Shown here: positions 3,518 to 40,969 of the stretch, piece after piece | Numbering within the stretch: position 1 is the first letter of the stretch | Layout: the number at the start of each line of letters is the position of its first letter | Source of the DNA: Minisyncoccota bacterium | GTDB taxonomy: Bacteria > Patescibacteriota > Minisyncoccia > Minisyncoccales > GCA-002788555 | Assembly (NCBI GenBank): GCA_028716825.1 | Contig: JAQUPA010000001.1 | Coordinates: forward strand, 13,071-77,070 | Reading direction: 5' to 3' | Length of the DNA: 64,000 nucleotides | Notes under the pieces: generated by a model | What the model was told of the DNA's origin: nothing | The model's input: only the letters and a program-made list of their open reading frames with translations | Database searches by the model: none | Program-made: the position numbers and the translations under genes

Positions 3518-3652
3518 ATGAGCATAACTTATCAACCCAAAAATAAAAAAAGAAAAAAGACGCACGGTTTTAGAAAGAGATCAAAAACAAAGCCAGGCAA
3601 GAAAGTTTTAAAAAGAAGACGAGCAAAAAAAAGAAAAAAATTAACTCATTAA
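3518..3652 (+). CDS. rpmH: 50S ribosomal protein L34
   Basis: Translates to [44 protein letters not shown], which matches the L34 consensus (KRT.QPS...R..THGFR.R). It is absent from the ORF track because it is under 60 aa. Confidence 0.9.
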
Positions 3653-3653
3653 A

Positions 3654-4046: not shown

Positions 4047-4811
4047 TTGAATATGAACCCTCTAACTTTTATTTTTCAGAAAGTTCTCTATCAGCCATTT
4101 TTGAATATATTGGTTGTTTTTTACAACCTTCCAATGATTGATTTTGGGCTGGCTATAATTTTATTAACGATTTTAGTAAAGGCAGCGACTTGGAGACTTG
4201 ATACACATGCTATTTTAAAGCAAAGGGAGGCTCAAATAAAAGGAGCAGAAGTTCAGGAAGAGATGAAAGAACTTCAGGAAAAATACAAAGATGATCCGAT
4301 GAAACAAAGCGAAGAGATTAGAAAACTTTGGAAAGAAAAGAAGTTTAATCCTTTCTCAAGTTTCGCACCGATGATAGTACAAATAGTTATTTTGATTGCT
4401 CTTTTCCAGATTTTAAGAACAAATATTGGCCCTGAGCAGTTAAAGTTACTTTATCCATTTGTAAAAAACCCAGGAGAGATTAATCCTATGTTTTTGGGAA
4501 TTATAAACTTAGCAAAGGCAAGCCCTGTTTTGGCCGTATTAACCGGCGTTGTGCAGTTTATTTATTCAAAGCTTACTTTTTCCATGCAAAAAAAATATAA
4601 GCCAAAAACAAAGAAGAAAGATAAGAAAAAGAAAGAAGGCACTTTCCAAAAAGTAATGCAGAATCAAATGATTTATTTTTTGCCAATATTTACTGTGATT
4701 ATTTGTCTTACCTTGCCTGCGGCGTTACCTCTTTATTGGTCTTTATCTACTGCGGTTGGTATTTTACAAACAAAAATTGTTTATCGCAAAATAGAAGCCG
4801 AAAACAAATAA
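4047..4811 (+). CDS. yidC: membrane protein insertase YidC (short Gram-positive/CPR form)
   Basis: 254 aa with several TM helices, a charged coiled region and a Lys-rich tail. Position after rnpA. Confidence 0.85.
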   Translation: MNMNPLTFIFQKVLYQPFLNILVVFYNLPMIDFGLAIILLTILVKAATWRLDTHAILKQREAQIKGAEVQEEMKELQEKYKDDPMKQSEEIRKLWKEKKFNPFSSFAPMIVQIVILIALFQILRTNIGPEQLKLLYPFVKNPGEINPMFLGIINLAKASPVLAVLTGVVQFIYSKLTFSMQKKYKPKTKKKDKKKKEGTFQKVMQNQMIYFLPIFTVIICLTLPAALPLYWSLSTAVGILQTKIVYRKIEAENK

Positions 4812-5352: not shown

Positions 5353-6348
5353 TTAAAAGGCGTTCATAATAACTCCCACTTCTTCTTCCCATTTTGAATT
5401 TCCATTTTTACATTCATAAGTTATTTGGCCACCATCAGAGAGAGTTACTGGTGGATTTTCTCCGAGGTCCCGTTCATAACCACACCACCTTAATCTAAAT
5501 TCTTTTATGCCAGTTAATCTCTTATACATTTCAGTTCCAGCGTTTTTTGTACACGCCCTTATTCCTTCTTCCCAGGAGCCATATCTTTTGCAAGGGAGAC
5601 AGGCTATGCCACAAGGATTATTTGTTCCATAAAGCCCATTGCCCGACTGTAGATTTTGAAGGCCCATACTAGTTTCAGCGTTAGCAATGCCAAGCATAAA
5701 AGTTGGGTTAACGCCGTATTCTTTGCCCGTTTCAACATAGACATTCCCCTTTCCTATTAATGGGCTTTTAGGAAAGTTTGTTTTTAGATAATTTTCAATT
5801 TCCTCAGTCGTGGCTGCATTTGTGTCCCAAATATCAGAAGAGTTCCCACTACTGCTTGAGGGGCTTCCAGAAGAAGGATAATATTTAGACATATATTCTT
5901 CCACCATTTCTTTTAAAGAAGGCCCTTCGTAAACATACTCTTTAACGTTTAGGTCTTTTAATGTTAAAAGATTTGGGTTAATTAGCGCTAAAATTGAAGC
6001 TGAAAACAATATAATTATAAGCCCTAAGATCGCATTTAATACTTGCTCCCTTCCCTTTTCTAGCTTTGTAGGATTTCCAGAAGATGTCATTAATCGAAGC
6101 CCTCCGATTATTAACATTAACATTGCTAAGGCTCCTGCGCTAACTACGGCAAATCTATAAATATAGACAATATAATCAGGAAGAGTAGTTGTTGGGGCCT
6201 TGCCAAAAGCTTCTGGGTACTCAACTTCTGGCTCTATTTGAGCATAGGTTGTTTTAGGAGAGGCTAATTCCAAGAAAGATATAATCGCGATTAAAATCAA
6301 AAAAAAGGTAAAAGTTTTAGTAACTTTTTTGTATATAGATTTTCGCAT
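5353..6348 (-). CDS. VirB2/TrbC-type pilin module fused to a peptidoglycan-hydrolase-like (glucosaminidase/lysozyme-like) domain
   Basis: Signal peptide, then two closely spaced TM helices (YRFAVVSAGALAMLMLIIGGLRL...ILGLIIILFSASILALINPNL), the VirB2/TrbC topology. A Ser-rich linker follows. The C-terminal domain contains GVNPTFMLGIANAETSMG (resembles the glucosaminidase motif) and 6 Cys. Confidence 0.55.
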   Translation of the reverse strand: MRKSIYKKVTKTFTFFLILIAIISFLELASPKTTYAQIEPEVEYPEAFGKAPTTTLPDYIVYIYRFAVVSAGALAMLMLIIGGLRLMTSSGNPTKLEKGREQVLNAILGLIIILFSASILALINPNLLTLKDLNVKEYVYEGPSLKEMVEEYMSKYYPSSGSPSSSSGNSSDIWDTNAATTEEIENYLKTNFPKSPLIGKGNVYVETGKEYGVNPTFMLGIANAETSMGLQNLQSGNGLYGTNNPCGIACLPCKRYGSWEEGIRACTKNAGTEMYKRLTGIKEFRLRWCGYERDLGENPPVTLSDGGQITYECKNGNSKWEEEVGVIMNAF

Positions 6349-6352
6349 TATT

Positions 6353-7540
6353 TTATTTAATACAGGTACATCTTGGCATTATGTCAAGGTGGTCTGGTGC
6401 CGTATAGTAGCCTTTTTCGTATGCATACTCTGCTTCGCAAGCAGAAGTATACCCAAATTTATATCCCTCTAATCTTTTGCAATAATCCATGCAAAAATCA
6501 TGGTTTCCGCTTCTGCATTCAGGAATATTTTCTAAATTATTCTGTCCTTTAAAATAAGCAGCTGTGGTGCCGTCATTCTTACATAGACAAAAAGCAGGGT
6601 TTTTGCCCGAAGCGCTTAATTGAAAAGTTTGCACTGAGCTGAACGAATCTTCATGGGCCTGATAGCAGCTGCAAGCGACTGGATCTCCTCCATCTACATG
6701 ATTAAGTTTGGTACATTCAGAAGGAAGCCCACCTAATGCTCTGTCTTTTGGCGCTATTACTCCGTATACATTTTTATTATCTTTATGGTATTTTTGACAG
6801 AGACCCATGCAAAAGTTACCACAACTATTTGAAAGTCCTCCTTCCCTACCCTGACACTCACAGGTTTCTAAAGGTAGTCCTTCTGTACATTTAAAGTTTT
6901 TAAATTCGTCTGCATCAGGAGGACTACAGAGTGCACGAGTTAATAATTTTGCATATGCGCCTGAACTATTAACAGGAAGATCAAAAGAATTCCCCATACT
7001 TCCTAATTTTCCGAGCATTATTGAATTTGCGATAGCAATACCATTCGCAGTATAGATAAAATTCCCAGCCATTAAATCTTTTTTTATTTTATCTTCTTCG
7101 CCAGCATTACTTAATGTAGGTTCTTTTATGACTACATCTTTCAATCTTACAAGATCCGGGTTGATTGTTCTTAGGACAATATAAATACTAAAAAGAGCAA
7201 GTAGGCCTATAATTGAACGTGTTATTTTATCTCTTGCCGCAGCCTTGAGCTGGGGATTGGCAGCTGCGCCTGACCATTCTATACCGCCGATTATTATCAT
7301 AATTACTGCTAAAAAAGCGCCAACCCAAAAAGAAAATTGATAAACATACTTTATATATTCTGGTAGATTTGGTTCAGGCGGATTCCATGGATAAGTTACC
7401 TCCCAGCCTCCCCAATCTGCTGCAAAAGATAAATTAAAAATAAAAAACAGTGCAAAAACAAAAAGAATAGATAAGGCAAAAATGATTTTATTTCTCTTTT
7501 TCATATTTTTTATTTTATCCCCTATTTTGTTGGAACGCAA
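6353..7540 (-). CDS. VirB2/TrbC-type pilin module fused to a Cys-rich extracytoplasmic domain (paralog of 5353-6348)
   Basis: Same N-terminal architecture (signal peptide, then YQFSFWVGAFLAVIMIIIGGIEW...IIGLLALFSIYIVLRTINPDL). The ~200 aa C-terminal domain has 18 Cys, including CEC, CSC, CLC and CTC pairs. Confidence 0.55.
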   Translation of the reverse strand: MRSNKIGDKIKNMKKRNKIIFALSILFVFALFFIFNLSFAADWGGWEVTYPWNPPEPNLPEYIKYVYQFSFWVGAFLAVIMIIIGGIEWSGAAANPQLKAAARDKITRSIIGLLALFSIYIVLRTINPDLVRLKDVVIKEPTLSNAGEEDKIKKDLMAGNFIYTANGIAIANSIMLGKLGSMGNSFDLPVNSSGAYAKLLTRALCSPPDADEFKNFKCTEGLPLETCECQGREGGLSNSCGNFCMGLCQKYHKDNKNVYGVIAPKDRALGGLPSECTKLNHVDGGDPVACSCYQAHEDSFSSVQTFQLSASGKNPAFCLCKNDGTTAAYFKGQNNLENIPECRSGNHDFCMDYCKRLEGYKFGYTSACEAEYAYEKGYYTAPDHLDIMPRCTCIK

Positions 7541-8172
7541 GAAGCATTGCCTTTATCTCCTTGGTACCAAATAATTTTTGTGCTTTTTATGTCAACATTA
7601 TTTGTTTCTAAATAATTAAGGGCTCTTTTTTTGGCCTGTTTGCAGTCTTTTGAATTAATTATAATTGCAAAAGCGTTTTTATCTTCTAAGAAAGTTAAGT
7701 CAAAATATTGGCTAAAAAAAGGGATTTTATTTTCCATTTTAAGCATTAAAGCAGAATCTTGTTTTAAGGAAGCTTCTGTTTCTTTTCCTGTTTTAAAATT
7801 AATAACAAACGGTAGCCCCTTGAGGGGCGGATTTTTTTGGTTTTTTGTATTTAGAGTTATCTTGTAATTCTTGTTTTCCTCAAGAAAATTTATTGGTTCT
7901 ATTTTTAATGTTTTGTTTTCAATAGATGTTTTAAATTCAAAGACAGGAGATGTTTCTATTACAATTCCCTTCATGCTTTTTATTTGCGAATTAAAATATA
8001 TAAAAACATTTTTATCTATCGGGGCATCGTTGCTGTTATTTGAGGGAGAGCTGTATAATATAGAAGTTTTTGTTTCTTTTGTGAAGGAAGTTCCGCCTAG
8101 CAACCAGAACATCACCACAAAAAATAATATAATAGTAAAAATTCCTAAAAAAATTAATAATTTTGTTTTCAT
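7522..8172 (-). CDS. secreted/membrane-anchored hypothetical protein (T4SS island)
   Basis: N-terminal TM/signal, no recognisable domain. Its 3' end overlaps the next gene's start, suggesting translational coupling. Confidence 0.5.
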   Translation of the reverse strand: MKTKLLIFLGIFTIILFFVVMFWLLGGTSFTKETKTSILYSSPSNNSNDAPIDKNVFIYFNSQIKSMKGIVIETSPVFEFKTSIENKTLKIEPINFLEENKNYKITLNTKNQKNPPLKGLPFVINFKTGKETEASLKQDSALMLKMENKIPFFSQYFDLTFLEDKNAFAIIINSKDCKQAKKRALNYLETNNVDIKSTKIIWYQGDKGNASCVPTK

Positions 8173-8867
8173 CTTTCTTTTTCGTTTTTAATAATAAAAT
8201 TTGCGGCTTCCAGAATTGTATTTTCCGGAGCATTAGAACTTATTAAATAATAATAAGTTTTTTCATCTCTTTTTGCGTAGCCAAGATAAATAGTGTACGA
8301 ATATTCTATATCTCTAGTAGACTCATCTATTTGGTTATACTTAAATAAAATCGCCTTTTTACCATTTATAAGGGTTTTTTCCTCTAGTTGATTCTTGGGT
8401 AGATAAAAATTATTTTCTAAAAAATAAGGCTTAATTATTGTGCCTTCTATTAAAATAGTTTTTTTGTCTTTATTAAGAACAATAAGCCCATGATCTGAAT
8501 ATGATTTTCCTCCTTTCTTTATAAACTTTGTATTTTTTTCTGATAAGCTTTCGTTATTAACATCGTAATAAATTTCTATTTTTTCAGGAGTTTTTTCTCC
8601 TCGCCATAAATTAACCTTAAAAAGTTTATATTCTTTCGGCAGTTTTATAGGATATTTTATAGGCAGATCTGTTAAATTTTGTGCTTTTTTAAAAATATTT
8701 ATATATTTTTCTTCTGAATTTAATGGATCAAGTCCGTCTTTAAATGATTGAGTAAAAATTAAACCTTCTGGCGCTTTTTCTTTTTTATAGAAAAAAGAAA
8801 AAGACAAGATACTTAATATTATTAAAATTAATCCTGTGATAATAAAAATCTTCTTTTTTATTTGCAT
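8169..8867 (-). CDS. secreted/membrane-anchored hypothetical protein (T4SS island)
   Basis: N-terminal TM helix. Overlapping start/stop with neighbours. Confidence 0.5.
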   Translation of the reverse strand: MQIKKKIFIITGLILIILSILSFSFFYKKEKAPEGLIFTQSFKDGLDPLNSEEKYINIFKKAQNLTDLPIKYPIKLPKEYKLFKVNLWRGEKTPEKIEIYYDVNNESLSEKNTKFIKKGGKSYSDHGLIVLNKDKKTILIEGTIIKPYFLENNFYLPKNQLEEKTLINGKKAILFKYNQIDESTRDIEYSYTIYLGYAKRDEKTYYYLISSNAPENTILEAANFIIKNEKER

Positions 8868-9388
8868 GTTTTACAATTAGAAACATTAGCAGGGCTATTT
8901 TCTTCAATGCTTATGTTTTTTGGGTCTTCTGGTTGCCACTCTATGTCTAATTTTTTATAGTCAACCCCTTTTGACTTTATCCATTCCAATGCTTCTATTT
9001 TATACTGAGCATAATCTTCTTTATAGTTTTCAAATTGGTCAGCGTCGTTTAAATAGGCGTGGAGTTTTATTTTATATGATGCTTTATTTTTGCCACTGAG
9101 ATAATATTTAATTTCAAAATGGTCATTATAATACGGTAAGTATTTAGTTAATGGATTTTTGCTATAAAAATTTTCTAATTGCTTGTCTGCTTTTTTATAA
9201 TTTACTTCTGATTCTGTGTTTTCTTCGGGGTTTGTGGTTTTCTCGTTTGTGTCTCCCGTGCTTTGTTTTTTTTCTCCAATACCCCCTTGATTTATAAAGA
9301 ATATAGCGAAAAGTGCAATGATTATAATTAATGCAAGAATTGCAAATAAGAAAGAGATTGTTTGTTTACGTGTATTAAATATGCTCAT
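8858..9388 (-). CDS. membrane-anchored hypothetical protein (T4SS island)
   Basis: N-terminal TM helix and a charged extracellular region. Overlaps the upstream gene. Confidence 0.5.
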   Translation of the reverse strand: MSIFNTRKQTISFLFAILALIIIIALFAIFFINQGGIGEKKQSTGDTNEKTTNPEENTESEVNYKKADKQLENFYSKNPLTKYLPYYNDHFEIKYYLSGKNKASYKIKLHAYLNDADQFENYKEDYAQYKIEALEWIKSKGVDYKKLDIEWQPEDPKNISIEENSPANVSNCKTCK

Positions 9389-9400
9389 GTTTTAATTCTT

Positions 9401-10594
9401 TTATTTCATTATTCCTGGCACCGATGGCTCTTGGGTAGAAAAATGCATTCCGTCGCAGAAGGTATTAAAGTCTCCCATCCCACATTGTTCCTTACAGAGC
9501 CCCCAAATTGGCCAGCCATGTTTTTCAAAAACCGTAGCTACTTCAGGAGTAACTTTATATGGTCCATTACCACAATCACCAAAATTATAATTTTCATTTA
9601 TATCACAAGCAATCCCAAAGCGATGAGCTGATATCGAAGATGAGTTGCCGGAACTAGCGCCTTGTGCTTCTCTGAAACAACCGAGGGTAACGATAGGGTA
9701 TTTCATCTTGGTAAGTTCTGAGAAAATTGATTTTAAACTACCAACAACCAATTTATGTGCTGTTATTTTTCTTTTTACTTCTGAAGTGCCATTCCAAACC
9801 GTAACCTCAAAAGTTTCTAAATATTTATTTACGGCGTTACCATTTCCTCCGTACGCACCAGAGCTTAACATTTCTTTTAGACTAGCATCTAGAGCAGCTT
9901 TATCAACGCTTTCTCCTGACACACAATCGTCATTTTTTAATAATTTATAAATTGTCATTGCGCCAATATTTGAATCAGCGTGAGTCATCCCACTGTCTAT
10001 GCAGCCGTTCCAAGTCATATTTTGGTGTTGTCCATCTAAAAGGTTTACCACATAAGGAGATTTGTCGTACGGAGTATTTTTTGGTTGTCCGGGGCAAGAA
10101 TTCCCGTTTTTATCTAGCCCATCTCTGTACATGTATCCTCTATTGTAAGCTAAAAATGCATATCCAATAGCATCATCGTTGGGGTTTTCATTCAACTCCA
10201 TTTTATATACTGATTTTGCTTTGTTTTTAAGAAAATTAGCAGCTGCTAAGGTTGCTTCTTCTAACGTGGTGTATACAGTGCCATTGTCGGGGTTTTTAGT
10301 TCCTAATTTTTCACCAGAGACTGGAGATTTTTCAGGACTGCAGCCTCCTTCTCTAAAATGAACCGCTGCTAACATTTGCCAAGGAATTCCTACTTGTTTT
10401 GCAGCTTCTTGATATATTGGTTTATTTTGTTCGATTTTTGCTTTAATATCAGAACTTATTTCTGCACCCGCTATTACTGTTTCAACACAATTTGCGTCTC
10501 CGCAATAATCTTGAGCAGAAGCCTTAATAAAAATTAGGATTGTTAGCATAGTAACAAAAAAAGTTAATAACTTAATTTTTGTTTTTCTCATCAT
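9401..10594 (-). CDS. secreted cell-wall hydrolase with a C-terminal M15 (VanY-like) peptidase domain
   Basis: Signal peptide. The C-terminus has SAHRFGIACDIN and HGWPIWG...DGMHFS, matching peptidase M15 zinc-ligand motifs (SxHxxGxAxD ... WGG...D.MHFE). The N-terminal region with GIPWQMLAAVHFREGG may be a second lytic domain. Confidence 0.6.
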   Translation of the reverse strand: MMRKTKIKLLTFFVTMLTILIFIKASAQDYCGDANCVETVIAGAEISSDIKAKIEQNKPIYQEAAKQVGIPWQMLAAVHFREGGCSPEKSPVSGEKLGTKNPDNGTVYTTLEEATLAAANFLKNKAKSVYKMELNENPNDDAIGYAFLAYNRGYMYRDGLDKNGNSCPGQPKNTPYDKSPYVVNLLDGQHQNMTWNGCIDSGMTHADSNIGAMTIYKLLKNDDCVSGESVDKAALDASLKEMLSSGAYGGNGNAVNKYLETFEVTVWNGTSEVKRKITAHKLVVGSLKSIFSELTKMKYPIVTLGCFREAQGASSGNSSSISAHRFGIACDINENYNFGDCGNGPYKVTPEVATVFEKHGWPIWGLCKEQCGMGDFNTFCDGMHFSTQEPSVPGIMK

Positions 10595-11685
10595 TTATTT
10601 AAAAGCGATCTTAAGAAGGTATGAGGTTCTAAAAGTTGGGTGGGTTTTTGGACGTCATTTCCATACCATTGTGTAGAATTGGTTGTTCCAGCTGTATAAA
10701 GCTCAAAATGGCACATCGCACTTCCTCCAGAGGTGTTTGCTATTATATTTCCAATGTGTTGGCCTGATTGTATTTCTTGCCCCATACTAACTAACGGAGT
10801 GATTTCTGTATAGTGCGCAACATAGTCTCCGTGGTTAATCATCACACTGTCAGTCCCTGCAAAAAAATTTTTTATTATCAAGACGACTTTTCCTTCTTTT
10901 ATGGCATAAACCCTACAAGCTTCGGGGGCAGAGGAGGGGTTTGTAATTATTGATCTTGGACAAGTGCCTCGGGGCACGGTTATATCTAAGCCCGCATGCC
11001 TTCTGCCGCCACTTCTTTGTGCTCCGAACATGCCTCCATCTGGGCAGCTGGCTCCCGAATTTTGAGAACTGCCTGGAGTATAGCAGGGAGGAGAGTTTAT
11101 TCTGTTAATTGCTTCTTGAGATGGATTTTTAACTGGGAATCCGTTTCCGCTTAAGTCAGTAGTTGCCCCGTTTGGAGTAGCACAGACTTCTGGCTTCATC
11201 ATTTCTCCAAAGCCCATTATAAACAGAGGAGCCATAATCATAGTGGCTGCGATTACCAAATAAAGTGTTCTTCTTTCTTTAAGAACAGAGATTACGTTTA
11301 TTGTCCACATTGGCAGGAGACCTCCTATAAAAGGTATTTGTTCTAAGATGAAAGAAACTATTATTTGTTTTAAGTAGGCTTTTGATTTTCCTAAGACGCC
11401 GCTTACCCTTTGTCCCTCGTCTTTTACCTTCTCTGCAGATTTTTTAACACTAGCAGGTCCTTTTGTTGGTGTAGCCCCATGACGTTTTAACCAAGTTCCA
11501 ATAACTATTGCAGCAATAAGATCTATAAAAACGCTTACGAAGGGTATTGATGCGCTTACAATTAGCTCAAAAAGATTCGCAAAAATATCTGCAAGGTCGC
11601 AGATTATTGCGAAAGTTAACATTATAAGAAAAATCGGGCTCAGAGAACTTACTTTATTTTCTTCTTGTTCCATAAAAGAAATCAA
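10591..11685 (-). CDS. membrane-anchored M23 (LytM-type) metallopeptidase
   Basis: Multi-TM N-terminus. M23 motifs RRHAGLDI, INHGDYVAHY and CHFELY (HxxxD, HxH). Confidence 0.7.
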   Translation of the reverse strand: MISFMEQEENKVSSLSPIFLIMLTFAIICDLADIFANLFELIVSASIPFVSVFIDLIAAIVIGTWLKRHGATPTKGPASVKKSAEKVKDEGQRVSGVLGKSKAYLKQIIVSFILEQIPFIGGLLPMWTINVISVLKERRTLYLVIAATMIMAPLFIMGFGEMMKPEVCATPNGATTDLSGNGFPVKNPSQEAINRINSPPCYTPGSSQNSGASCPDGGMFGAQRSGGRRHAGLDITVPRGTCPRSIITNPSSAPEACRVYAIKEGKVVLIIKNFFAGTDSVMINHGDYVAHYTEITPLVSMGQEIQSGQHIGNIIANTSGGSAMCHFELYTAGTTNSTQWYGNDVQKPTQLLEPHTFLRSLLNK

Positions 11686-11688
11686 GCT

Positions 11689-13524
11689 TTATTTATTTTC
11701 TGTTTTCCTTTCAACCCCTTCGATCCCTTCTTCTAACTCCTCTTTGGCTTTTCTTATCGCCAAAATTTGTTCTGGATTTGTAGTGATAATTTGGTCTTCT
11801 CCAAAAGAGGCAACTACTTTTATGGCGGCATGTTTTGCGCCTGCGAAAAAGAGTCCTTCGCCAACTCTTGCCTGCAAAAGTAAATATCTTTCTTCTTTTG
11901 TTAAATTAAAAGTTTGACTTACCGTGTCTATGGTCGCTGGTGATTGTTTTAAGAGCATTTGGAGAGAAGAGTTCGAGATAATTGATTTTCCATATTCAGA
12001 TATCATAAAATCATTAACGTCTTGGGTGATTGTTGAAACACCAAGATAATATTTTCTTGCACGCTTTGCTATTCCAAAAAGGAAAGAAGCAGCTTCTTCG
12101 TGTTTCATCATAACCCAAGCTTCATCCACAATAAGATATCTTTTTTTGAGTTCTGATCTTATGATGTTCCATATATAGTGCAAAATTAAATACATTGCGA
12201 CTGGTCTTAATTCTTCCTCAAGGTCTCTTATTGAAAAGACTACCATTTTACTTCCTTCTAATTCTACGCTTGTGTGCCGGTTTAAAAATCCAGAGTAAGC
12301 GCCTGTAGTGTATTTTTCAAGACGTTTTGCGATAGACTCCCCTCCCTCCATTCCTTCAAGGACTTTTTGCAAGTCAGATAAAAGCGGAGGAGTTTGATTA
12401 TAAAAGTCAGAATCAGCAGTAATATCTCTTGCAGAATAAGTAAGATTTATTGCTTGGTCTATAATTGCATCTTCCTCTGGAGTTAGGCCTCCGAGCATTA
12501 AACGCAAGAGTCCCACAAGGTTTATTATATTTGAACGGAAAGTTCCTTCTTTTGGTTCTCCCTCAACAGCAGGAGGCAGATCAAAAGGATTTATGTGGTG
12601 GCTTGAGCTCAAAGAAATATTAAAATAAGATCCTCCTACTGTTTCTGCAAGGTATTTATATTCGTTTTCAGGGTCAATTACGATAACATCGATATCTTGA
12701 ATTAAAGAGCGGAAGATTTCTAATTTTTGGAAATAGCTTTTTCCGCTACCGCTTTTTGCAAAAGTTACCATATTTGCATTTTCGAGAGAAAATCTGTCAA
12801 AGATAATAAGAGAATTATTATGACGGTTTATCCCATAAAGTATGCCTCTGTCTGAAGTGAGCTCAAACGAAACAAAAGGAAAAACGGTAGATAGAGGCGA
12901 GGTGTTCATTGAGGTATTTGTGTTTAACTGGTCCATTGAAAGGGGCGAGACAGAATAAAAACCCTCTTTTTGGCGGAAAACAGCAGATTTTGTGTAAATA
13001 AGACTTGATTCAAAAATTTGAGTTATACTTTTTTCTATTTTTTCAAGCTGGCTTTTCTTGTCCGCATATATTGAAAAATATACTCCAACTTTAAACATTT
13101 TTTCTTCAGCCCTTGTCAATTTGTCCCTCAGTTCTTCAATGTTTTGTTGAGCAGCTTGTAGCCCTGGGTCTCTAATTAATCCCTTCTCTTCTCTTTCCAT
13201 AATTAGTGCTTCAACTTCTGTAAGTTTTTTCTGTAGTTGTCTTATAATCTTTTCTGTTGATACGGGATAGACAAAAATTGAAATATCAATTATTTCGTCC
13301 AAATTTATGATTGGGGAAAGCCAGCCCGTGGCAACTGTTTGAGGGAATGTTAAAACAAAAAAAGTTTTTGCGATTTTTTCCCCTATTTTTATATAATTTT
13401 GGAAAACCCCAACAGCTGATGGCGCTATAATGTCGTAAATATTGATAAGCCGTTCTTCTTTTTCTACTTGAAGTTCTTTTTTTGTCTCTGGATTTTCTTC
13501 TTCTTGTTTTTTTGTTGGGAACAT
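11689..13524 (-). CDS. virB4: type IV secretion/conjugation ATPase VirB4/TrbE/PrgJ-like
   Basis: 611 aa. Walker A FAKSGSGKSYF, Walker B LIVDEAWVMM. Size and layout are typical of VirB4. Confidence 0.85.
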   Translation of the reverse strand: MFPTKKQEEENPETKKELQVEKEERLINIYDIIAPSAVGVFQNYIKIGEKIAKTFFVLTFPQTVATGWLSPIINLDEIIDISIFVYPVSTEKIIRQLQKKLTEVEALIMEREEKGLIRDPGLQAAQQNIEELRDKLTRAEEKMFKVGVYFSIYADKKSQLEKIEKSITQIFESSLIYTKSAVFRQKEGFYSVSPLSMDQLNTNTSMNTSPLSTVFPFVSFELTSDRGILYGINRHNNSLIIFDRFSLENANMVTFAKSGSGKSYFQKLEIFRSLIQDIDVIVIDPENEYKYLAETVGGSYFNISLSSSHHINPFDLPPAVEGEPKEGTFRSNIINLVGLLRLMLGGLTPEEDAIIDQAINLTYSARDITADSDFYNQTPPLLSDLQKVLEGMEGGESIAKRLEKYTTGAYSGFLNRHTSVELEGSKMVVFSIRDLEEELRPVAMYLILHYIWNIIRSELKKRYLIVDEAWVMMKHEEAASFLFGIAKRARKYYLGVSTITQDVNDFMISEYGKSIISNSSLQMLLKQSPATIDTVSQTFNLTKEERYLLLQARVGEGLFFAGAKHAAIKVVASFGEDQIITTNPEQILAIRKAKEELEEGIEGVERKTENK

Positions 13525-13531
13525 AAAAATA

Positions 13532-14125
13532 TTAGTCTATTTTCGGGAAAATTGGCATTGTTTCTTTGTCGGTTTTGTCGGGATTATAAAAACCCCAAAG
13601 TAGTTCTACAATTTCATCGCTTCCGAGCAAGAGAGCGCTTACGCCTGTCCCACGAAGACCATTTATTACATATTGAGACCTTAAGTTAATTTGACTTTTC
13701 CATCTTTTAAATTCTTTGTCTGACATTTCTTTTACTGGCGGGTAAAAAGGCACAACAATATAGAAATTTTTTGATATTAAATTTGCCATTGAAGAGAGCG
13801 ATCTTATAAATTCACGATATTCATTTGCTTGGATTTTTAAAAGCTCATTTTCTTGTTTTGCTTCAACTTCTTCCAATTGTTTTAAGTAGGGTTTTAAGTT
13901 TAATTTTCTTGATTGAATAAGTATTTGAATTTCAAAATCAAGAGAATTTAGGAAGCTCTGAAATTGATAAATAACAGCTTCTTTTTCTTCGTCAGACATT
14001 AAGTCAAAATTAATGGATGAGGCCATTAAAATATTTCTCCAGCCGCCTTGTTTTAAGATGACGACATCTTCTTTTATTTTTTTTATTGTCACAAAGTCCT
14101 GGGTTGTTGCTTTTGCTCCAATCAT
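13532..14125 (-). CDS. hypothetical T4SS-associated protein
   Basis: 197 aa with no clear motif. Its position between the VirB3-like gene and VirB4 suggests a system component. Confidence 0.4.
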   Translation of the reverse strand: MIGAKATTQDFVTIKKIKEDVVILKQGGWRNILMASSINFDLMSDEEKEAVIYQFQSFLNSLDFEIQILIQSRKLNLKPYLKQLEEVEAKQENELLKIQANEYREFIRSLSSMANLISKNFYIVVPFYPPVKEMSDKEFKRWKSQINLRSQYVINGLRGTGVSALLLGSDEIVELLWGFYNPDKTDKETMPIFPKID

Positions 14126-14136
14126 AATATTTAAAA

Positions 14137-14598
14137 TTATTCTTTATTTTTAATAATATTGTTCTCGGGCCGAAATTCTTCTTCTGTTTCGTTCTTTTTC
14201 GCTTCTAACATCCAAGCCATTTTCTTTAATTTACTTTCTTCTGCCCTTCTTTGGGGTACGGTTTCTTCTTTTTTTTCTATAACTTTTTCAACCTCTTTTA
14301 AGGATACCATTTCTTGGCCTTTTTTAAACCAAATATATTCTTTTGGGTTTAAAAAATAAGAAATACCGTATGAGAATATTGAAACTAAATCTTGCCCTTG
14401 ATATTTAAACAGGGCAAAGGCTGCTCCTCCTCCGATAAGCAGAATACCCAAAAGGAAAGAAATAAAAATATTTTTAAAAATCAAATATAAAACTATAACA
14501 AAAATTAATGGACCAGCCATTAAGAAAAATTGTCTCAGAGAAAGAGGTCCTATAATTTTTGATTCTGATTCTATAAATTGGGGAACGTAATATTGCAT
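14137..14598 (-). CDS. VirB3/PrgI-like small membrane protein (putative)
   Basis: 153 aa with two adjacent TM helices near the N-terminus, located just upstream of VirB4 as in Gram-positive T4SS loci. Confidence 0.45.
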   Translation of the reverse strand: MQYYVPQFIESESKIIGPLSLRQFFLMAGPLIFVIVLYLIFKNIFISFLLGILLIGGGAAFALFKYQGQDLVSIFSYGISYFLNPKEYIWFKKGQEMVSLKEVEKVIEKKEETVPQRRAEESKLKKMAWMLEAKKNETEEEFRPENNIIKNKE

Positions 14599-15183
14599 TT
14601 ATTCTTTTTTGATTTTTTTACCAAGCGTTTCTCCCTCTGTTTTTGCTGATTCTAGTTCTTCCGAAAGTCCTTTTAAAATCTCGTTAATTTCATCTCGATC
14701 AGTTTTTTTCCTTACTTGTATTTTTTTTTCTTTTTTAACCTCCGGTGTATTTTCTATTTGGGAAGTTTTTTCTTCGGTAGATATCTTTAATGACGGGAAT
14801 TCTGTTTTTGCTCTCTCTTCGGCTTTTCCAATGATTGTGTCAATTGTGTCTTCCCCTGGTATTGTGGGTTCCCCTTCTGTTTTTGGATAAAGCATATCAA
14901 GACCCTCTTTGTAGTTTGAGAAAATCTGCGTTTCCATTTCTTTTGCAATATCTCGGCTTAACTCCTCGCTAAAACCAAATTCTTTTTTAATTTCTCCTGC
15001 CACTTTATTTTGCGACAAACTTCCATTTAGAACTTTTTCAAATATTGTATCGAGCTTATCTATGCCTTCGTCGCCTTCGCCCTTAATTTGGAACCGTCTT
15101 GCTATGTCGCAAACTTTCTCAAAATTTTTTCTATCTTTAAGAGCATTTTCTATGTTCTCTGGCAATTGATTTTCATCATCCAT
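14599..15183 (-). CDS. acidic/Lys-rich hypothetical protein
   Basis: 194 aa, highly charged, no TM helix. Confidence 0.4.
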   Translation of the reverse strand: MDDENQLPENIENALKDRKNFEKVCDIARRFQIKGEGDEGIDKLDTIFEKVLNGSLSQNKVAGEIKKEFGFSEELSRDIAKEMETQIFSNYKEGLDMLYPKTEGEPTIPGEDTIDTIIGKAEERAKTEFPSLKISTEEKTSQIENTPEVKKEKKIQVRKKTDRDEINEILKGLSEELESAKTEGETLGKKIKKE

Positions 15184-15228
15184 ATTTTTAATGAGTATTT
15201 TGGTAAAAAATTAAAAGTTTATGGGCTG

Positions 15229-17496
15229 CTATGACGTAAGGTCGATACCAGACTTTCTTATTAGTTGCGCATTTGGTCGTCCTGTTCCTCCTTTTGCTCT
15301 TGGTCCGCCAAGTTTTTCAATTAATTCATTTGCCTGGGAAGGATTTTGAACAATGTTTTGTATATTTGCTTTAACCGTGGTTATATATCCTGTTGGGTCA
15401 GCTGCTCGGTCTGGTGCTCCTTCTGTTAATCGAGCATGAATAGCTTTTCCTTTTTCTGGGCTTGAAAGTATTGTGCTTAAATCTTTTATATCAGAGGACC
15501 TTATTGTGGCTTCTACAACAAGCCTATCTTTTATGCCGCCTGCGCCATTATTTAAACTATCATCCCAGTAACTCTTTTTGGATGCACTAGTTTTTTCGTG
15601 GCGCGTCATTTTGCTAAATAGTAAATCAAGATTTTCTCTTCTGTTTAATCCTCGTGATGGGTTTGTTGAAACAATATGAGGGTTTGCTATCTCGGTTTTT
15701 TCTAGTAACTTTTTATATTTCGGATTTTTCTCTAGCTTTCCTTTTAATTTACCCCAGGCTCCTTGATCAATGTCTATGCCTTGCTTTTGGGCGGCTTCAA
15801 GGATTGCCCAAGCTCTTGCTTCTCTTCTTTTGCCAATTGTTGAATATCCTCCTATTTCTTTTCCGGCAAGTTCTGTTGCTGCTGCCCCAAGTCTCTTTTC
15901 ATCAAGGTTTGCGTACCTTGGCTGCCATTTTTTGTGATGTTTTTCTACTTCTTCAGGGCGATGTCCAGTAAGTGCCCCTGGTTTTATAGGCGTCCATTTA
16001 CTATCCTCGAGCTTGCTCGCCCAATTATATAAACTTGTTCCTGGTTTGCCAAAAACGCCTTTCCCTTTTTCGGCTCCTTTCAAGGCAGTATATCCAATAG
16101 CAGCTCCTGTGCCTACAGCTGTTAATTTGCCAAGTTTTTTGACTCCACCGATAACTTTAGCACCAACCGTGCCGCCACTTTTTACTGCTGCAAAAAGGCC
16201 AATTACCATTACGATAACAGGAAAACCTACCGTGACCAATAAAGCAATAATATTTCCAAGAAGTTCGTCTCCCACGATCGAAGCCATATCTATTGAACTT
16301 GAAACTTCTAACATTTGAGTTGCAAGGTATAAAAAGAAAGAAGCAGCAACTCCGATAAAGGACCACTGGATAACATATTGCCACCATTTTTTAAAATAGT
16401 CCCTTGTTGCAGGAAGAATGTAAGCGGCAAATGCAAGCGGCGCTAAAATTACAAGTAGCCAAATTGCAAGGTTTCTTACTAAAAAGAGAGCTGTCATTGT
16501 CATTAAAGTCCCTATTGCCATTACCATTGCAACAGCTGCTCCTATAAGATAAATTGTTGGTGCTAAGATTCCCGGATTAGGTTGATTACTTGCCCCTGCA
16601 CATTCAGCTAATATTTTATTTGCCTCGTCTTCGCTATATTTTTCACTCAAACTTTCGAGAATTGCCCAACCAGTTTCTTCTGCGTTTGGAGCTTTATCTT
16701 TTATGCATGCTTCGAAATCTGACCACTCACCTCCTAAGTTTCCACGAGGACCAGAAAGTTCTCCGCATGAGCCGTATCTCTCCTCGCATTGAGCTTTTCC
16801 AAGTACTGCCCAAGTTAAATACTGAGAAAACGTTGCTGCTGGCATTACACCACTAAATCCTGCTGAAGCAGTGGAAATAAATAAGCTTATATAATCGTTA
16901 TCTGCGTCTACTAATTTTTCAAAGCCAATGCCCCGGACAAAATAATAAACAATAATATTTCCAGCATCTACAATAAGCCCTACAAAAACAGGCGCAAAGT
17001 TGACAAGTAAAGCCATAATAATTAATACCGGGAGTAATTTTTTAATGCCATAAGCCTCAATTCCTAAAATTGTAGCAATTGCAATAGTAACAAAAGCCAA
17101 AATGAAGATCATGTTTGCCAGGGGCATAGTAACGTCTAGTCCAGCTTTAATGAAAGGATTATCTGCTTTTGTGAGAGAGAATCCCCCGATTTTATTTGTT
17201 GCTGACCATATTAGAGTATCTGTAAGTGCTTTAATAAAAATTCCTGCTAAAGAGGATATAAAGAAAGCCATAAGAGCAATTGGTCCTACGACAAGCAGGA
17301 ATAACAAAAGAAGTATAGATTTTGGGATAAATTGGTCAGCACCGAAAAGAGCAAACGCAAAACGGAAAGGAATTATTAGGCCTATTAAAATTAAAAAGAG
17401 CGAAATAAATACTACTTTTTTGTTTTTAGGATTCTTGCAAAAAGACCAAGAACGATAATAGAGATTTTTTATTTTTTGTTTCAGAGGCTCCTCCAT
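15229..17496 (-). CDS. polytopic membrane protein, VirB6/TrbL-like
   Basis: 755 aa with at least 8 TM helices in two blocks, an extracytoplasmic Cys-containing loop and a long charged C-terminal tail. This architecture resembles VirB6/TrbL. Confidence 0.55.
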   Translation of the reverse strand: MEEPLKQKIKNLYYRSWSFCKNPKNKKVVFISLFLILIGLIIPFRFAFALFGADQFIPKSILLLLFLLVVGPIALMAFFISSLAGIFIKALTDTLIWSATNKIGGFSLTKADNPFIKAGLDVTMPLANMIFILAFVTIAIATILGIEAYGIKKLLPVLIIMALLVNFAPVFVGLIVDAGNIIVYYFVRGIGFEKLVDADNDYISLFISTASAGFSGVMPAATFSQYLTWAVLGKAQCEERYGSCGELSGPRGNLGGEWSDFEACIKDKAPNAEETGWAILESLSEKYSEDEANKILAECAGASNQPNPGILAPTIYLIGAAVAMVMAIGTLMTMTALFLVRNLAIWLLVILAPLAFAAYILPATRDYFKKWWQYVIQWSFIGVAASFFLYLATQMLEVSSSIDMASIVGDELLGNIIALLVTVGFPVIVMVIGLFAAVKSGGTVGAKVIGGVKKLGKLTAVGTGAAIGYTALKGAEKGKGVFGKPGTSLYNWASKLEDSKWTPIKPGALTGHRPEEVEKHHKKWQPRYANLDEKRLGAAATELAGKEIGGYSTIGKRREARAWAILEAAQKQGIDIDQGAWGKLKGKLEKNPKYKKLLEKTEIANPHIVSTNPSRGLNRRENLDLLFSKMTRHEKTSASKKSYWDDSLNNGAGGIKDRLVVEATIRSSDIKDLSTILSSPEKGKAIHARLTEGAPDRAADPTGYITTVKANIQNIVQNPSQANELIEKLGGPRAKGGTGRPNAQLIRKSGIDLTS

Positions 17497-17530: not shown

Positions 17531-18352
17531 TTATTTCTTTTTTGCAAGGGTTTTGTAAATTTTAGTCCATTCGTCTATCGACAAACTTTGGGCCCTTCTT
17601 GAAAGATCAAGACAATGTTTCACGTGAAACATTTCTTTTTTACTTAAAACTTTCTGGAAATTATTTTTAAGCTGTTTTCGGGGCGAAGAAAACCCTGCTT
17701 TTACAATTTTAAAGAATTGATTAGCATTCATTATTTCATTTTTAGCTTTAATTAGAGGGCTTATTTTCAAAATAGCGCTATCAACTTTTGGTTTTGGCCA
17801 AAAACTATCTTTTTTAACTATTTTTACTATCTTGGGCGTTGCATAAATCTGAACTGCCACAGAAAGAAGAGACATATTTGGCGGTTTTTGACATATTCTT
17901 TTTGCAACCTCTTTTTGGACCATAAATACCATTAAAAAAGGAGGATTTTCCATTTCTAAGAATTTTCTAATTACAGGAGAAGTAATATAATAGGGCAAAT
18001 TTGCTACTACTTTATATTTTGTTCCAAAATTTTCTATTTTAGATTTGAGAATATCCTCCGGTATTATTTTTACGTTTTTAATATTTTTTATATCAAATTC
18101 TTGATTTAAAATTCGAGCCAATTCTTTATCTTTTTCAAAGGCGATTACTTTTTTTACCCTTTTTGCCAATTCTTTTGTAAGGGTTCCAAGTCCTGACCCT
18201 ACTTCAAGAATAAAATCTTCTTTTTTAAGATCTGCAGTCTCTATAACTTGATTTAATATTCCTTTTTCAATTAAAAAATTCTGTCCAAAATATTTTTTCG
18301 GCTTTAAATTATTTTTTTCAAGAGTTTCTTTAATCTTTTTTTTTAAACTCAT
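17531..18352 (-). CDS. rsmA: 16S rRNA (adenine1518/1519-N6)-dimethyltransferase
   Basis: FGQNFL motif and the SAM-binding segment LEVGSGLGTLT. Confidence 0.9.
   Translation of the reverse strand: MSLKKKIKETLEKNNLKPKKYFGQNFLIEKGILNQVIETADLKKEDFILEVGSGLGTLTKELAKRVKKVIAFEKDKELARILNQEFDIKNIKNVKIIPEDILKSKIENFGTKYKVVANLPYYITSPVIRKFLEMENPPFLMVFMVQKEVAKRICQKPPNMSLLSVAVQIYATPKIVKIVKKDSFWPKPKVDSAILKISPLIKAKNEIMNANQFFKIVKAGFSSPRKQLKNNFQKVLSKKEMFHVKHCLDLSRRAQSLSIDEWTKIYKTLAKKK
17614..17633. repeat. 20-bp perfect palindrome AATGTTTCACGTGAAACATT (inside rsmA)
   Basis: Read directly from the sequence. Encodes MFHVKH in rsmA. Confidence 0.9.
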
Positions 18353-18392
18353 TACTTGTTGTGCTATTTGTTATTAGTTTTATGCCATTAGT

Positions 18393-18956
18393 TTATTTGG
18401 CGCGCTCAACGTATTCCCCCTTTTGGGTATTTACAACCACAATGTCCCCTTTTTTTATGAAAAACGGCGTTTTTATCTCAGCGCCAGTTTCGAGAATTAC
18501 TGGTTTTGTACCTCCCTGGGCTGTATCTCCCTTAAAAGAAGATGGAGCTTCTTTGACTTCCAGGTTTATTTTTATTGGTAGTGTTATATCAAGGACCTCA
18601 TTATTAAATTCAATTGTTTCAACCATTATATTTGGCTTTAAAAATCTTTTTTTATCCCCTATTTTCTCTTCCGGAAGAAAAAATCGCTTTGAAGGATTTT
18701 TAGGATTAGAGAAGAAATATTGTCCTCTATGGTTATAAATATATTTAAATGTTTCACGTGAAACATCCGCTTCTTCAAAGTTATCCCCGGGCTTAAAATT
18801 TCTTTTAAGAAAGGCTCCTGTTTTTAAATTTTTAATTTTTGTTTGTAAGATCGCTCCACCCCTTCCAAGGTGTAAGTGTTTTGCCTCAATTACTTCAAAC
18901 GGTTGCTTTCCTAAAATAAAAATTACACCAGGTTTTAGTTCTCCTATATTCAGCAT
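18393..18956 (-). CDS. efp: elongation factor P
   Basis: 187 aa with three OB-like domains, including LHLGRGGAILQTKIKNLKTG. Confidence 0.85.
   Translation of the reverse strand: MLNIGELKPGVIFILGKQPFEVIEAKHLHLGRGGAILQTKIKNLKTGAFLKRNFKPGDNFEEADVSRETFKYIYNHRGQYFFSNPKNPSKRFFLPEEKIGDKKRFLKPNIMVETIEFNNEVLDITLPIKINLEVKEAPSSFKGDTAQGGTKPVILETGAEIKTPFFIKKGDIVVVNTQKGEYVERAK
18749..18766. repeat. 18-bp perfect palindrome ATGTTTCACGTGAAACAT (inside efp)
   Basis: Read directly from the sequence. It falls in a different reading frame from the rsmA copy. Confidence 0.9.
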
Positions 18957-18959
18957 AAG

Positions 18960-20420
18960 TTATTTAATCCAAAATTTATTTTTGTCTTCTTGATCAACTT
19001 CAATTTTTTTCTCTTTCACTCTTTTTTCTTTAGCTTTTAGTTCTTTTTCATTAAGTTTTGCTAATTCTTTTGTTCGTTTTTTTAAGAATTCTTTTTTATT
19101 TTTCTTTGGATCGTCAAGCACTTCGGACAAAAGGGCATTTAAAACCAATCCTACTCTTGGTCCTGATTTTGTTTTAAGAATTTTCATTATTTCATTTCCG
19201 TTTATTTTTAACATTTGAACAGAAATTGGGTCTCGTGAGACCTTGGATACCATATATTCAAAATGACGCAACCTATATGGCCTTGCTTTTGGAACGCCAG
19301 AGCCTTTTCTATCAGTAATTCTTAACTGTACAAGTTCTTCCATGTTTTCCTTGCCTACTTTTTTGAGTAGTCTTCTTACGGAGGATTCTGTCACAACCTC
19401 GGGGTCGTAAAAAAACATATGATTTCTTATTAAAGTGCCTACCTTTTCTACGGTTTTTTTGGGGAACCTTAGTCTTTCTAAAATTCCCATTGCAATTTTT
19501 GCTCCAACAATATCATGGTTATAAAAAGTTGCATCCGGCCCCTCCCCGCTTTTTGTCTGGGGCTTTGCAATATCATGGAAAAGAGCTGCCAGCCTTACAT
19601 TTAAATTGTAATTGTATTTTACAGCATACTTTAGAGATAAAAGTGCGTGCTGGAAAATTGTATATATGTGATGGCGGTTCTGGGAAACTCCAAAACCTTT
19701 TTCAAGCTCAGGAATAATATATTTTAAAAGATTTGTTTTATGTAGGAGCATAAGGCCATCATAAGCATATTCAGACATTATAATTTTTTCAAATTCTTCT
19801 TTTATTCTTTCTTTTGATATTGCTTGTAACCATGGGGCGTTCTTTTTAATAGCGCTTAAGGTTTTTTGTTCTATTTTCCAATCAACACCAAGGGTTGTTG
19901 CAAACCTTACGGCGCGCAATAACCTTAATGCGTCTTCTGAAAATCTTTTTTTTGGCTCCCCCACTGCTTTTATAATTTTGTTTTTAAGGTCTTTCCGCCC
20001 TAAAAAAGGATCAGTAATTGTTATTTCTTTTTTCTTGCCATCTGTTAGCTTGAGCGCGATTGCATTTACCGTAAAATCACGTCTTGCAAGGTCTTCTTCT
20101 ATTGTTTTTGCCCAATTTACTTTATCTGGGTGTCTTTTGTCGGTATATTTTTCCTCGTTTCTATAAGTCGTAATTTCAACCTCAAAAATGTCTTTTTTAT
20201 TTGTAGGAATTTTTACGGTAACTGTTCCGAATTTATTTTTATAAAAGCTGTCTGGAAACACCTTTTGAATTTCTTTTGGGTTTGCGTTTGTTGCAACGTC
20301 CCAGTCTTTTGGGATAGCTTTCCTTAAAACGTCTCTAACACAGCCACCTACAATATAAGCTTCAAAATTAGCTTTCTTTAGGTTTTTTATTACTAATTTT
20401 ACTTCTTTTGGGATTTCCAT
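18960..20420 (-). CDS. cca: CCA-adding tRNA nucleotidyltransferase with HD domain
   Basis: GGCVRD motif and an HD domain (LAALFHDIAKP). Confidence 0.85.
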   Translation of the reverse strand: MEIPKEVKLVIKNLKKANFEAYIVGGCVRDVLRKAIPKDWDVATNANPKEIQKVFPDSFYKNKFGTVTVKIPTNKKDIFEVEITTYRNEEKYTDKRHPDKVNWAKTIEEDLARRDFTVNAIALKLTDGKKKEITITDPFLGRKDLKNKIIKAVGEPKKRFSEDALRLLRAVRFATTLGVDWKIEQKTLSAIKKNAPWLQAISKERIKEEFEKIIMSEYAYDGLMLLHKTNLLKYIIPELEKGFGVSQNRHHIYTIFQHALLSLKYAVKYNYNLNVRLAALFHDIAKPQTKSGEGPDATFYNHDIVGAKIAMGILERLRFPKKTVEKVGTLIRNHMFFYDPEVVTESSVRRLLKKVGKENMEELVQLRITDRKGSGVPKARPYRLRHFEYMVSKVSRDPISVQMLKINGNEIMKILKTKSGPRVGLVLNALLSEVLDDPKKNKKEFLKKRTKELAKLNEKELKAKEKRVKEKKIEVDQEDKNKFWIK

Positions 20421-20489
20421 AATTGTGAATTTTGAATAACGAATAATGAATTGCGCTTATTTTATTCTATCTTTTTGATGTTTAATTTT

Positions 20490-20538
20490 CAAATGTTTCA
20501 CGTGAAACATTTGATAGTATTGTTTCACGTGAAACAAT
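20490..20538. promoter_or_regulatory. two tandem perfect palindromes (24 bp CAAATGTTTCACGTGAAACATTTG and 20 bp ATTGTTTCACGTGAAACAAT) upstream of cca, candidate operator
   Basis: Read directly from the sequence, 70-120 nt upstream of the cca start. They share the core TGTTTCACGTGAAACA. Confidence 0.6.
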
Positions 20539-20610
20539 CTTTGACTATTTTTTTAATTTTATTTAAAATTTTATCAGTGATGGTAGAATTTTGCGTTGTT
20601 GTTTATTTTT

Positions 20611-20682
20611 GCCCTCTTGGTATAATGGATAACACGCGACGCTTCGGACGTCGAGTTGGGGGTTCGAATCCCTCAGAGGGCA
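20611..20682 (+). tRNA. tRNA-Arg (anticodon TCG), CCA not encoded
   Basis: Acceptor GCCCTCT/AGAGGGC, D-arm GGTATAATGGATAA, anticodon stem CGACG/CGTCG with loop CTTCGGA, T-arm GGGGGTTCGAATCCCTC. Confidence 0.8.
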
Positions 20683-20699
20683 CGAGATAGCTAAAAATA

Positions 20700-20888: not shown

Positions 20889-21290
20889 ATGAAAAAAAAT
20901 TATAAATTATTTCTTTTAATATTTATTTTTATTATTTCTCCATTTATTATTCAGGCAGCTGGCTTGGTGCCTTGTGGTGGAGATGGTGAGCCTAGCTGTG
21001 GTCTTTGTCATCTCTTTGTAATGATAAGAAGCGTAATTGTATTCTTAACTGGAATTGCTGCTGTTGTGCTTGCAATAATGCTTATTGTTGGGGGAATTAT
21101 GTTTGTTACAGCACATGGGAATCCTGAATGGGTGACAAAAGCAAGAAAGACCATTACAGGAGCGATAATTGGTTTTCTGATAGTTATTATGTCTTGGATT
21201 ATTGTAAATTCGGTCATAACGTTTGCTACTGGCAGTGAGAATATATTTCAAAACATGGGTCCTTGGCATAAAATCCAATGTAATCCTTAA
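20889..21290 (+). CDS. stand-alone VirB2/TrbC-type pilin
   Basis: 133 aa. Signal peptide, then two TM helices (VIVFLTGIAAVVLAIMLIVGGIMFV and GAIIGFLIVIMSWIIVNSVITF). Same module as the N-termini of 5353-6348 and 6353-7540. Confidence 0.55.
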   Translation: MKKNYKLFLLIFIFIISPFIIQAAGLVPCGGDGEPSCGLCHLFVMIRSVIVFLTGIAAVVLAIMLIVGGIMFVTAHGNPEWVTKARKTITGAIIGFLIVIMSWIIVNSVITFATGSENIFQNMGPWHKIQCNP

Positions 21291-23731: not shown

Positions 23732-23849
23732 AATTGAGAAGATTGACAGGAAAGAACTTTAAAAATTGAATTTACCCTATTAAATCCCGCAAAGCGGGAG
23801 CGACAAAGTCGCTATTCAATAGGGTAAGATAAGAATTTCTTTGGTGCGA

Positions 23850-26836
<2,987 letters not shown>

Positions 26837-26913: not shown

Positions 26914-26944
26914 ATTTAACAAGGTAAATTTTGAGCTCATTATC

Positions 26945-27051
26945 TTGGTGATAATACTGGGCGGGCAATACCTCTTTCCATCCCGAACAGAGAAGTTAAG
27001 TCGTCCAAGGCCGATGATATTGCTTTTGCGAGAAAGTAGGTCGTCGCCAAG
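26945..27051 (+). rRNA. rrf: 5S ribosomal RNA
   Basis: CTTGGTGATAATACTGGGCGGG...CCATCCCGAACAGAGAAGTTAAG...GTCGTCGCCAAG, flanked by the processing-stem inverted repeat GAGCTCATTATC / GATAATGAGCTC. Confidence 0.85.
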
Positions 27052-27073
27052 ATAATGAGCTCAAAGAAGAAAA

Positions 27074-40964: not shown

Positions 40965-40969
40965 AAGAG

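Follow-up and report, generated by a model that had tools for sequence, protein, structure and literature searches.

A cluster of probable parS sites near the likely replication origin of a Parcubacteria chromosome

We analysed a stretch of 64,000 nucleotides from the genome of a Minisyncoccota bacterium (assembly GCA_028716825.1, contig JAQUPA010000001.1, positions 13,071 to 77,070 of the forward strand), called the window below and numbered from its first letter. Four perfect palindromes within 2.9 kb of this window share the 16-bp core TGTTTCACGTGAAACA and are very probably chromosomal parS sites, that is, the centromere-like loading sites of ParB (Spo0J). Three lines of sequence comparison point this way: (i) each site is a 16-bp inverted repeat that fits the parS consensus TGTTNCACGTGAAACA, with 16 of 16 matches to its optimal form at all four sites; (ii) within the visible 64 kb the copies are few and concentrated near the probable origin, lying 14.4-17.3 kb from the dnaA start; (iii) it is the DNA sequence that is under selection, regardless of what it encodes, as seen from the conservation of the site in efp and from the placement of the four in two different reading frames (rsmA and efp) and in intergenic DNA. 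The element is of an already known kind, a canonical origin-proximal parS cluster, here in a Parcubacteria chromosome; it is real but ordinary.

Exactly four exact copies of TGTTTCACGTGAAACA are present in the window (coordinates in Table 1), against a mean count of 0.00 in 100 dinucleotide-preserving shuffles, and scanning the same 64 kb at up to three mismatches added no further site (shuffle mean 0.31). All four copies fall inside the 2.9 kb and none in the remaining 61 kb, a clustering that four randomly placed sites would reach with P ~3.6e-4. A preliminary description of this DNA, made from its letters, had reported four perfect palindromes around a shared core and proposed a count against random expectation; the palindromes are as reported, and the count, run here on the window, sets them far above that expectation and tightly clustered. 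The genes it named, rsmA, efp and cca, are correct by Pfam, and all are on the minus strand. The maximal perfect palindromes are 20 bp long in the 3' part of rsmA (17614-17633) and 18 bp in efp, in another frame (18749-18766), both as described, while those of the tandem pair upstream of cca measure 26 bp (20489-20514) and 20 bp (20519-20538). For this pair the description gave 24 and 20 bp at a distance of 6 bp; the 20 bp is right, but the longer palindrome has 26 bp and the gap is 4 bp. Measured by their 16-bp cores the two sites are 11 bp apart and 27 bp from centre to centre, and the pair lies 69-118 bp upstream of the cca start codon. The symmetry runs past the 16-bp core by 2, 1, 5 and 2 extra pairs at the four sites in order, above the chance level of 0.27 per step; since this extension is not retained in more distant relatives, we attach no function to it.

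The exact 16-mer TGTTTCACGTGAAACA is termed the optimal B. subtilis parS in PMC4333373. Table 1 of PMC7022226 gives the consensus TGTTNCACGTGAAACA for B. subtilis (10 sites, 8 of them in the ori domain) and for C. glutamicum (10/10), and tGTTNCACGTGAAACa for Burkholderia chromosome I; its entry for Hyphomonas neptunium is exactly TGTTTCACGTGAAACA at 2/2 sites, all four S. pneumoniae sites (4/4) are placed in the ori domain, and the chromosomes listed carry 2-22 parS sites, nearly all in the ori domain. When the literature was searched in full text for the exact 16-mer, 27 papers matched, and each of the 20 among them that were listed concerned ParB/parS. Such sites were described in the late 1990s, the first in B. 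subtilis being found inside spo0J itself, and the comparative genomics of Livny et al. in 2007 reportedly found parS in most bacterial phyla.

The likeness to type Ia ParABS systems, and to B. subtilis parS in particular, covers the identical 16-bp optimal sequence, the perfect dyad symmetry, the low copy number (four), the clustering close to the origin, and the occurrence of sites both inside coding sequences and between genes. Two features are unlike B. subtilis: the host, which belongs to the Parcubacteria of the Candidate Phyla Radiation (CPR), and the embedding of one site in efp, where it is conserved across a subclade. A third sets the region apart from the common arrangement with parAB near oriC, for here parAB adjoins neither oriC nor the sites. 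Close parallels in the same table of PMC7022226 are H. neptunium, for the identity of its two sites, and S. pneumoniae, for a similar small number near the origin; chromatin immunoprecipitation (ChIP) and genetic evidence stand behind both, in contrast to the sequence evidence used here. S. pneumoniae lacks ParA. The Noc-binding sites (NBS) of Firmicutes were also considered, being described as 16-bp palindromes bound by a ParB paralogue that uses cytidine triphosphate (CTP). The NBS consensus, roughly ATTTCCCGGGAAAT, differs from that of parS, and NBS are found throughout the chromosome, the terminus region excepted. An NBS identity was rejected because the present sites match parS exactly and are clustered.

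The gene order dnaN-dnaA followed by rpmH-rnpA-yidC forms a canonical oriC neighbourhood in the classical divergent dnaA/rpmH arrangement, and the origin most likely lies at dnaA. Its exact position is taken from this gene order and from the 15%-GC spacer between dnaA and dnaN, since no convincing DnaA-box cluster was found in the window: the E. coli consensus at up to one mismatch gives 24 scattered matches, of which 5 lie in or close to dnaN/dnaA (1090-2604). This lineage may use a DnaA box unlike the E. coli type. Right of the parS sites follow tRNA-Arg, a pilin gene, tRNA-Lys, nusA, ppa, and the 23S and 5S rRNA genes.

An origin at the tandem pair itself was also examined, the cumulative GC-skew minimum and a strand switch both being at ~20.5 kb. 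Taken on the plus strand, third-codon-position GC skew is above zero in all gene blocks between 3.6 and 64 kb regardless of gene strand (+0.09 to +0.15 in the three minus-strand blocks, +0.15 to +0.33 in plus-strand blocks); the value for dnaN/dnaA is only +0.03. Because the skew stays positive across minus-strand blocks on both sides of the pair, the switch at ~20.5 kb reflects a change in transcription direction, and an origin at this point was rejected. Third-position skew gives no sign of an origin signal anywhere right of 3.6 kb.

By its EF-P and DnaN homologues, the window falls in the Parcubacteria group of CPR/Patescibacteria. The related DNA that we compared comprises efp and dnaN neighbourhoods from 93 loci (895 kb), among them 80 further loci of the wider clade (683 kb) gathered by a metagenome scan with an EF-P alignment. 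The relatives' contigs keep the order cca-efp-rsmA, then a block resembling a type IV secretion system (T4SS), then yidC-rnpA-rpmH and, across the divergent junction, dnaA-dnaN. In the closest pair of loci, L001/L002 (EF-P 97% identical), all four positions are occupied; the tandem pair upstream of cca is exact and has the same 27-bp spacing, and the rsmA copy reads TGTTCCACGTGAAACA by way of a synonymous TTC codon. L004/L005 (EF-P 70%) have the exact efp site together with a one-mismatch site, TGTTTCATGTGAAACA, upstream of cca, and L006/L007 (73%) have the exact efp site. Throughout the 895 kb every exact or one-mismatch site is orthologous to one of ours (efp, rsmA or upstream of cca), and the one site with two mismatches is a remnant upstream of cca in L003. 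The 80 wider-clade loci, searched at up to two mismatches, yielded just two sites, both exact and at efp nt 192, in the two closest loci (63% and 61%); four further dnaN neighbourhoods held no parS-like sites.

The efp site is thus the most widely shared copy, exact at the same nucleotide (nt 192) in L001, L002, L004, L005, L006, L007, L010 and L011, whose EF-P proteins are 61-97% identical to that of the window. Its VSRET codons are identical at 5/5 positions in the window, L004 and L006, compared with a codon identity of 0.55-0.58 at other conserved residues, and among the 120 best homologues 13 carry VSRET at the corresponding place of EF-P, including 11 of the closest 26. The rsmA site has a different history: it lies in a segment of RsmA that varies among relatives, is found only in the window and the 97%-identical relative, and is absent from L003, L004 and L006. 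This mix of old sites, strictly conserved as DNA, with lineage-specific gains and losses fits protein-binding sites to which the coding context is indifferent, and the MFHVKH and VSRET peptides of RsmA and EF-P can be explained as by-products of a constraint at the DNA level.

Several results weigh against parS. Neither parB nor parA was found in the window by Pfam scans of ORFs (open reading frames) and by six-frame tblastn, in the 93 related loci by six-frame tblastn, or in the 10 kb beyond dnaN in six relatives' contigs. The Pfam search took in essentially all ORFs of at least 80 aa, with a permissive rescan (E<=1) of the unannotated ones; the tblastn queries were Spo0J and Soj, both validated by Pfam (ParB_N 6e-39, HTH_ParB 2e-39, AAA_31 3e-76), and a ParB consensus. 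The searchable literature returned no description of ParABS or parS in CPR/Parcubacteria. Finally, L003 (EF-P 72%) retains a two-mismatch remnant only, upstream of cca, and has VLRQI in place of VSRET and so no efp site; across ~37 kb of origin region in L003/L008 there is this decayed remnant and no efp site. Either this relative has its sites in another place or loss of the system is possible in the clade. In L003 an ORF for a LAGLIDADG homing endonuclease (7872-8366) is directly upstream of cca, beside the remnant, which reads TGTTTCATGAGAAACA (7843-7858).

Such results could be read as signs that ParAB has been lost from the lineage and that the sequences either are relics or serve a binding protein that is not ParB: neither parA nor parB turned up in the window or across ~0.9 Mb from the clade, and one relative (L003) shows site decay. 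Nevertheless, the presence of four perfect copies, and of an efp site whose codons are conserved at 61-74% EF-P identity, implies ongoing purifying selection, and the missing parB carries little weight because the sampled DNA covers the efp and dnaN neighbourhoods only. We consider this reading highly improbable. From four perfect sites under evident purifying selection we argue instead for a binder with the specificity of ParB, and we assume that the cognate ParB is encoded elsewhere in the genome. A bolder proposal is that the clade lost canonical ParAB, or encodes a highly divergent ParB at a distance from the origin, with the sites, above all the efp one, being recognised by another or a remodelled factor for partition or SMC loading; in a milder version, ParB at the tandem pair would genuinely regulate the cca and tRNA-Arg promoters. 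We regard this proposal as a long shot.

Promoter-like sequences around the tandem pair raise another alternative. The two best sigma-70-like matches of the region are divergent and bracket the pair, which sits exactly between them and adjoins both -35 hexamers (Table 1). Together with the perfect palindrome, which suits a dimeric helix-turn-helix (HTH) protein, this arrangement would be expected of operators for a dedicated dimeric transcription factor acting on cca and/or tRNA-Arg, the intragenic copies then serving as roadblocks. That the sites are operators of this kind is very unlikely, however: they carry the universal parS consensus; efp and rsmA each hold one copy well within the gene, and the copy most conserved in the clade is the efp one rather than the promoter pair; no common regulatory logic is obvious for cca, efp and rsmA; and no regulator gene is adjacent, the only sigma/HTH protein of the window being encoded at 43026-43817. 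The sites are thus neither confined to promoters nor linked to a regulator gene. Any local effect would be covered by the auxiliary roles in regulating gene expression that PMC7022226 reports for ParB itself. ParB on the tandem pair may, speculatively, dampen the cca and tRNA-Arg promoters, as a side effect and not as its primary role.

Two sites also have the look of terminators. A terminator scan found the 26-bp palindrome terminator-like on the plus strand; we rejected that reading, as no plus-strand gene ends there and the stem is parS itself. On the same strand, site 1 followed by TCTTTTTT (17614-17643) looks like an intrinsic terminator that would act on antisense transcription inside rsmA; it was not among the calls of the scan, and the resemblance is probably a coincidence in an AT-rich genome.

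Could the palindromes be a DNA uptake sequence or another self-recognition sequence? Some copies are inside genes, and the window holds both the T4SS-like block and a ComM-type Mg-chelatase-like ATPase. Uptake sequences, however, occur at a high and roughly uniform density, about one per kb genome-wide, and so in hundreds to thousands of copies. Here the 61 kb outside the cluster hold none, the exact and one-mismatch sites in the 895 kb of relatives are all orthologous, and the wider clade has two copies in 683 kb, so that uptake has hardly any chance of being the explanation. We give as little credence to a restriction-modification (R-M) or methyltransferase target built on CACGTG, although this core, a palindrome of 6 bp, has the form typical of type II targets. 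CACGTG has five copies in the window against a Markov expectation of 1.6, but four of these are the parS sites; the remaining one indicates neither avoidance nor enrichment and, at 35070, shares nothing with the sites beyond TCACGTGA. The core is therefore unbiased outside the sites, Pfam found no DNA methyltransferase or endonuclease among the scanned ORFs of the window, and a target of 6 bp would leave the conservation of 16 bp unexplained.

The preliminary description had put forward operators for a dimeric regulator, an uptake sequence and an R-M target on CACGTG, and none of the three is supported by these comparisons. It was right to suspect a function at the DNA level, in that exact parS sites are recognition sites for a dimeric DNA-binding protein, and right that the intragenic copies speak against a purely promoter-based function. 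Its proposed check for clustering at promoters divides the sites, the tandem pair lying between two promoter-like sequences and the other two copies deep in genes. All that is left of its idea of roadblocks or regulation is a possible side effect of ParB bound between the two divergent promoter-like sites, those of cca and tRNA-Arg. The interpretation as a whole is partly supported; it missed both the parS identity and the presence of dnaA/oriC 14-17 kb away.

If the palindromes are parS, the mechanism would follow by analogy with ParABS biology as set out in PMC7022226. A ParB dimer, encoded elsewhere in the genome, would recognise each 16-bp palindrome through its HTH domains, bind CTP, close into a clamp and slide onto the flanking DNA. 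The four sites, confined to 2.9 kb, would be expected to nucleate one origin-proximal partition complex several kb in extent; ParA, if the genome encodes it, would move this complex, and/or the complex would load the SMC-ScpAB condensin (PMC7022226). The expected outcome is that sister origins separate after replication.

Table 1. Probable parS sites, predicted promoters and other features of the 64-kb window
Feature	Coordinates	Strand	Remarks
dnaN	624-1742	-	Pfam
Probable oriC neighbourhood	1743-3517	.	dnaA and both flanking spacers
dnaA-dnaN spacer	1743-1912	.	15% GC; candidate DNA-unwinding element
dnaA	1913-3265	-	Pfam
dnaA-rpmH spacer	3266-3517	.	24% GC when measured to rnpA (3266-3653)
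rpmH	3518-3652	+	gene identity assigned
rnpA	3654-3992	+	Pfam
yidC	4047-4811	+	Pfam
T4SS-like block, CPR type	5353-17496	-	between yidC and rsmA, beside the origin region
TraG/VirB4-like P-loop ATPase	11689-13524		in T4SS-like block
PrgI	14137-14598		in T4SS-like block
TrbL/VirB6-like protein	15229-17496		in T4SS-like block
rsmA	17531-18352	-	Pfam RrnaAD 6e-57
parS site 1 (probable)	17616-17631	.	exact 16-bp consensus; 3' part of rsmA, nt 722-737 of 822; encodes MFHVKH
efp	18393-18956	-	Pfam
parS site 2 (probable)	18750-18765	.	exact 16-bp consensus; in efp, nt 192-207 of 564; encodes (D)VSRET
cca	18960-20420	-	Pfam
Predicted cca sigma-70-like promoter	20464-20492	-	TTGAAA (-35, 20487-20492), 17-nt spacer, TAGAAT; 10/12 matches, consensus only
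parS site 3 (probable)	20494-20509	.	exact consensus; intergenic, adjoins -35 hexamer of predicted cca promoter
parS site 4 (probable)	20521-20536	.	exact consensus; intergenic, 4 bp upstream of -35 hexamer of predicted tRNA-Arg promoter
Predicted tRNA-Arg(TCG) sigma-70-like promoter	20541-20569	+	TTGACT (-35, 20541-20546), 17-nt spacer, TAAAAT; 10/12 matches, consensus only
tRNA-Arg(TCG)	20611-20683		
T4SS-like block, further part	20889-21290	+	
23S rRNA	23845-26835		downstream of nusA-ppa
5S rRNA	26944-27052		downstream of nusA-ppa
ORF-poor stretch	40300-41476		no ORF of at least 80 aa, no Rfam match
Small proteins of unknown function	41477-42118		
ORF-poor stretch	42119-43025		no ORF of at least 80 aa, no Rfam match
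ORF-poor stretch	43818-44757		no ORF of at least 80 aa, no Rfam match
Small proteins of unknown function	44758-46539		
ORF-poor stretch	46540-47848		no ORF of at least 80 aa, no Rfam match
Adenylosuccinate lyase	47849-49225		in high-GC stretch
High-GC stretch	48000-50000		GC 0.47
23S_rRNA_IVP family gene	51448-51810	-	PF05635, 2e-28
ComM-type Mg-chelatase-like ATPase	60996-62516		

Other parts of the window also deserve mention. The T4SS-like block encodes, besides the components listed in Table 1, several T4SS_pilin proteins, a Big_5 protein, and M15 and M23 peptidases, and is syntenic in the relatives L003, L004, L006, L008, L009 and L090. The rRNA genes appear to be unlinked, because 23S and 5S rRNA are present and no 16S rRNA was found in the whole 64 kb. 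Among the subunit genes of pyruvate:ferredoxin oxidoreductase (POR) sits a gene of the 23S_rRNA_IVP family, and L006 has a homologue (1192-1455) between cca and efp. Four ORF-poor stretches of 0.9-1.3 kb each, interleaved with small proteins of unknown function, are unusual for a compact CPR genome. The high-GC stretch, against ~0.34 elsewhere outside the rRNA genes, spans adenylosuccinate lyase and the start of the POR cluster and may be horizontally acquired.

For the most part the finding brings little new biology, parS having long been known. Together with dnaA and dnaN, the four sites mark the window as the origin region of the chromosome, which is useful for annotation. They imply that a ParB-type segregation system, or one for SMC loading, would have been kept in a reduced CPR genome. 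Should a different or remodelled factor read the sites after all, this would be a CPR-specific variant of chromosome segregation. The parS site embedded in efp is a minor curiosity; conserved across a Parcubacteria subclade, it would be a case of a centromere site constraining a coding sequence, and it could serve as a lineage marker.

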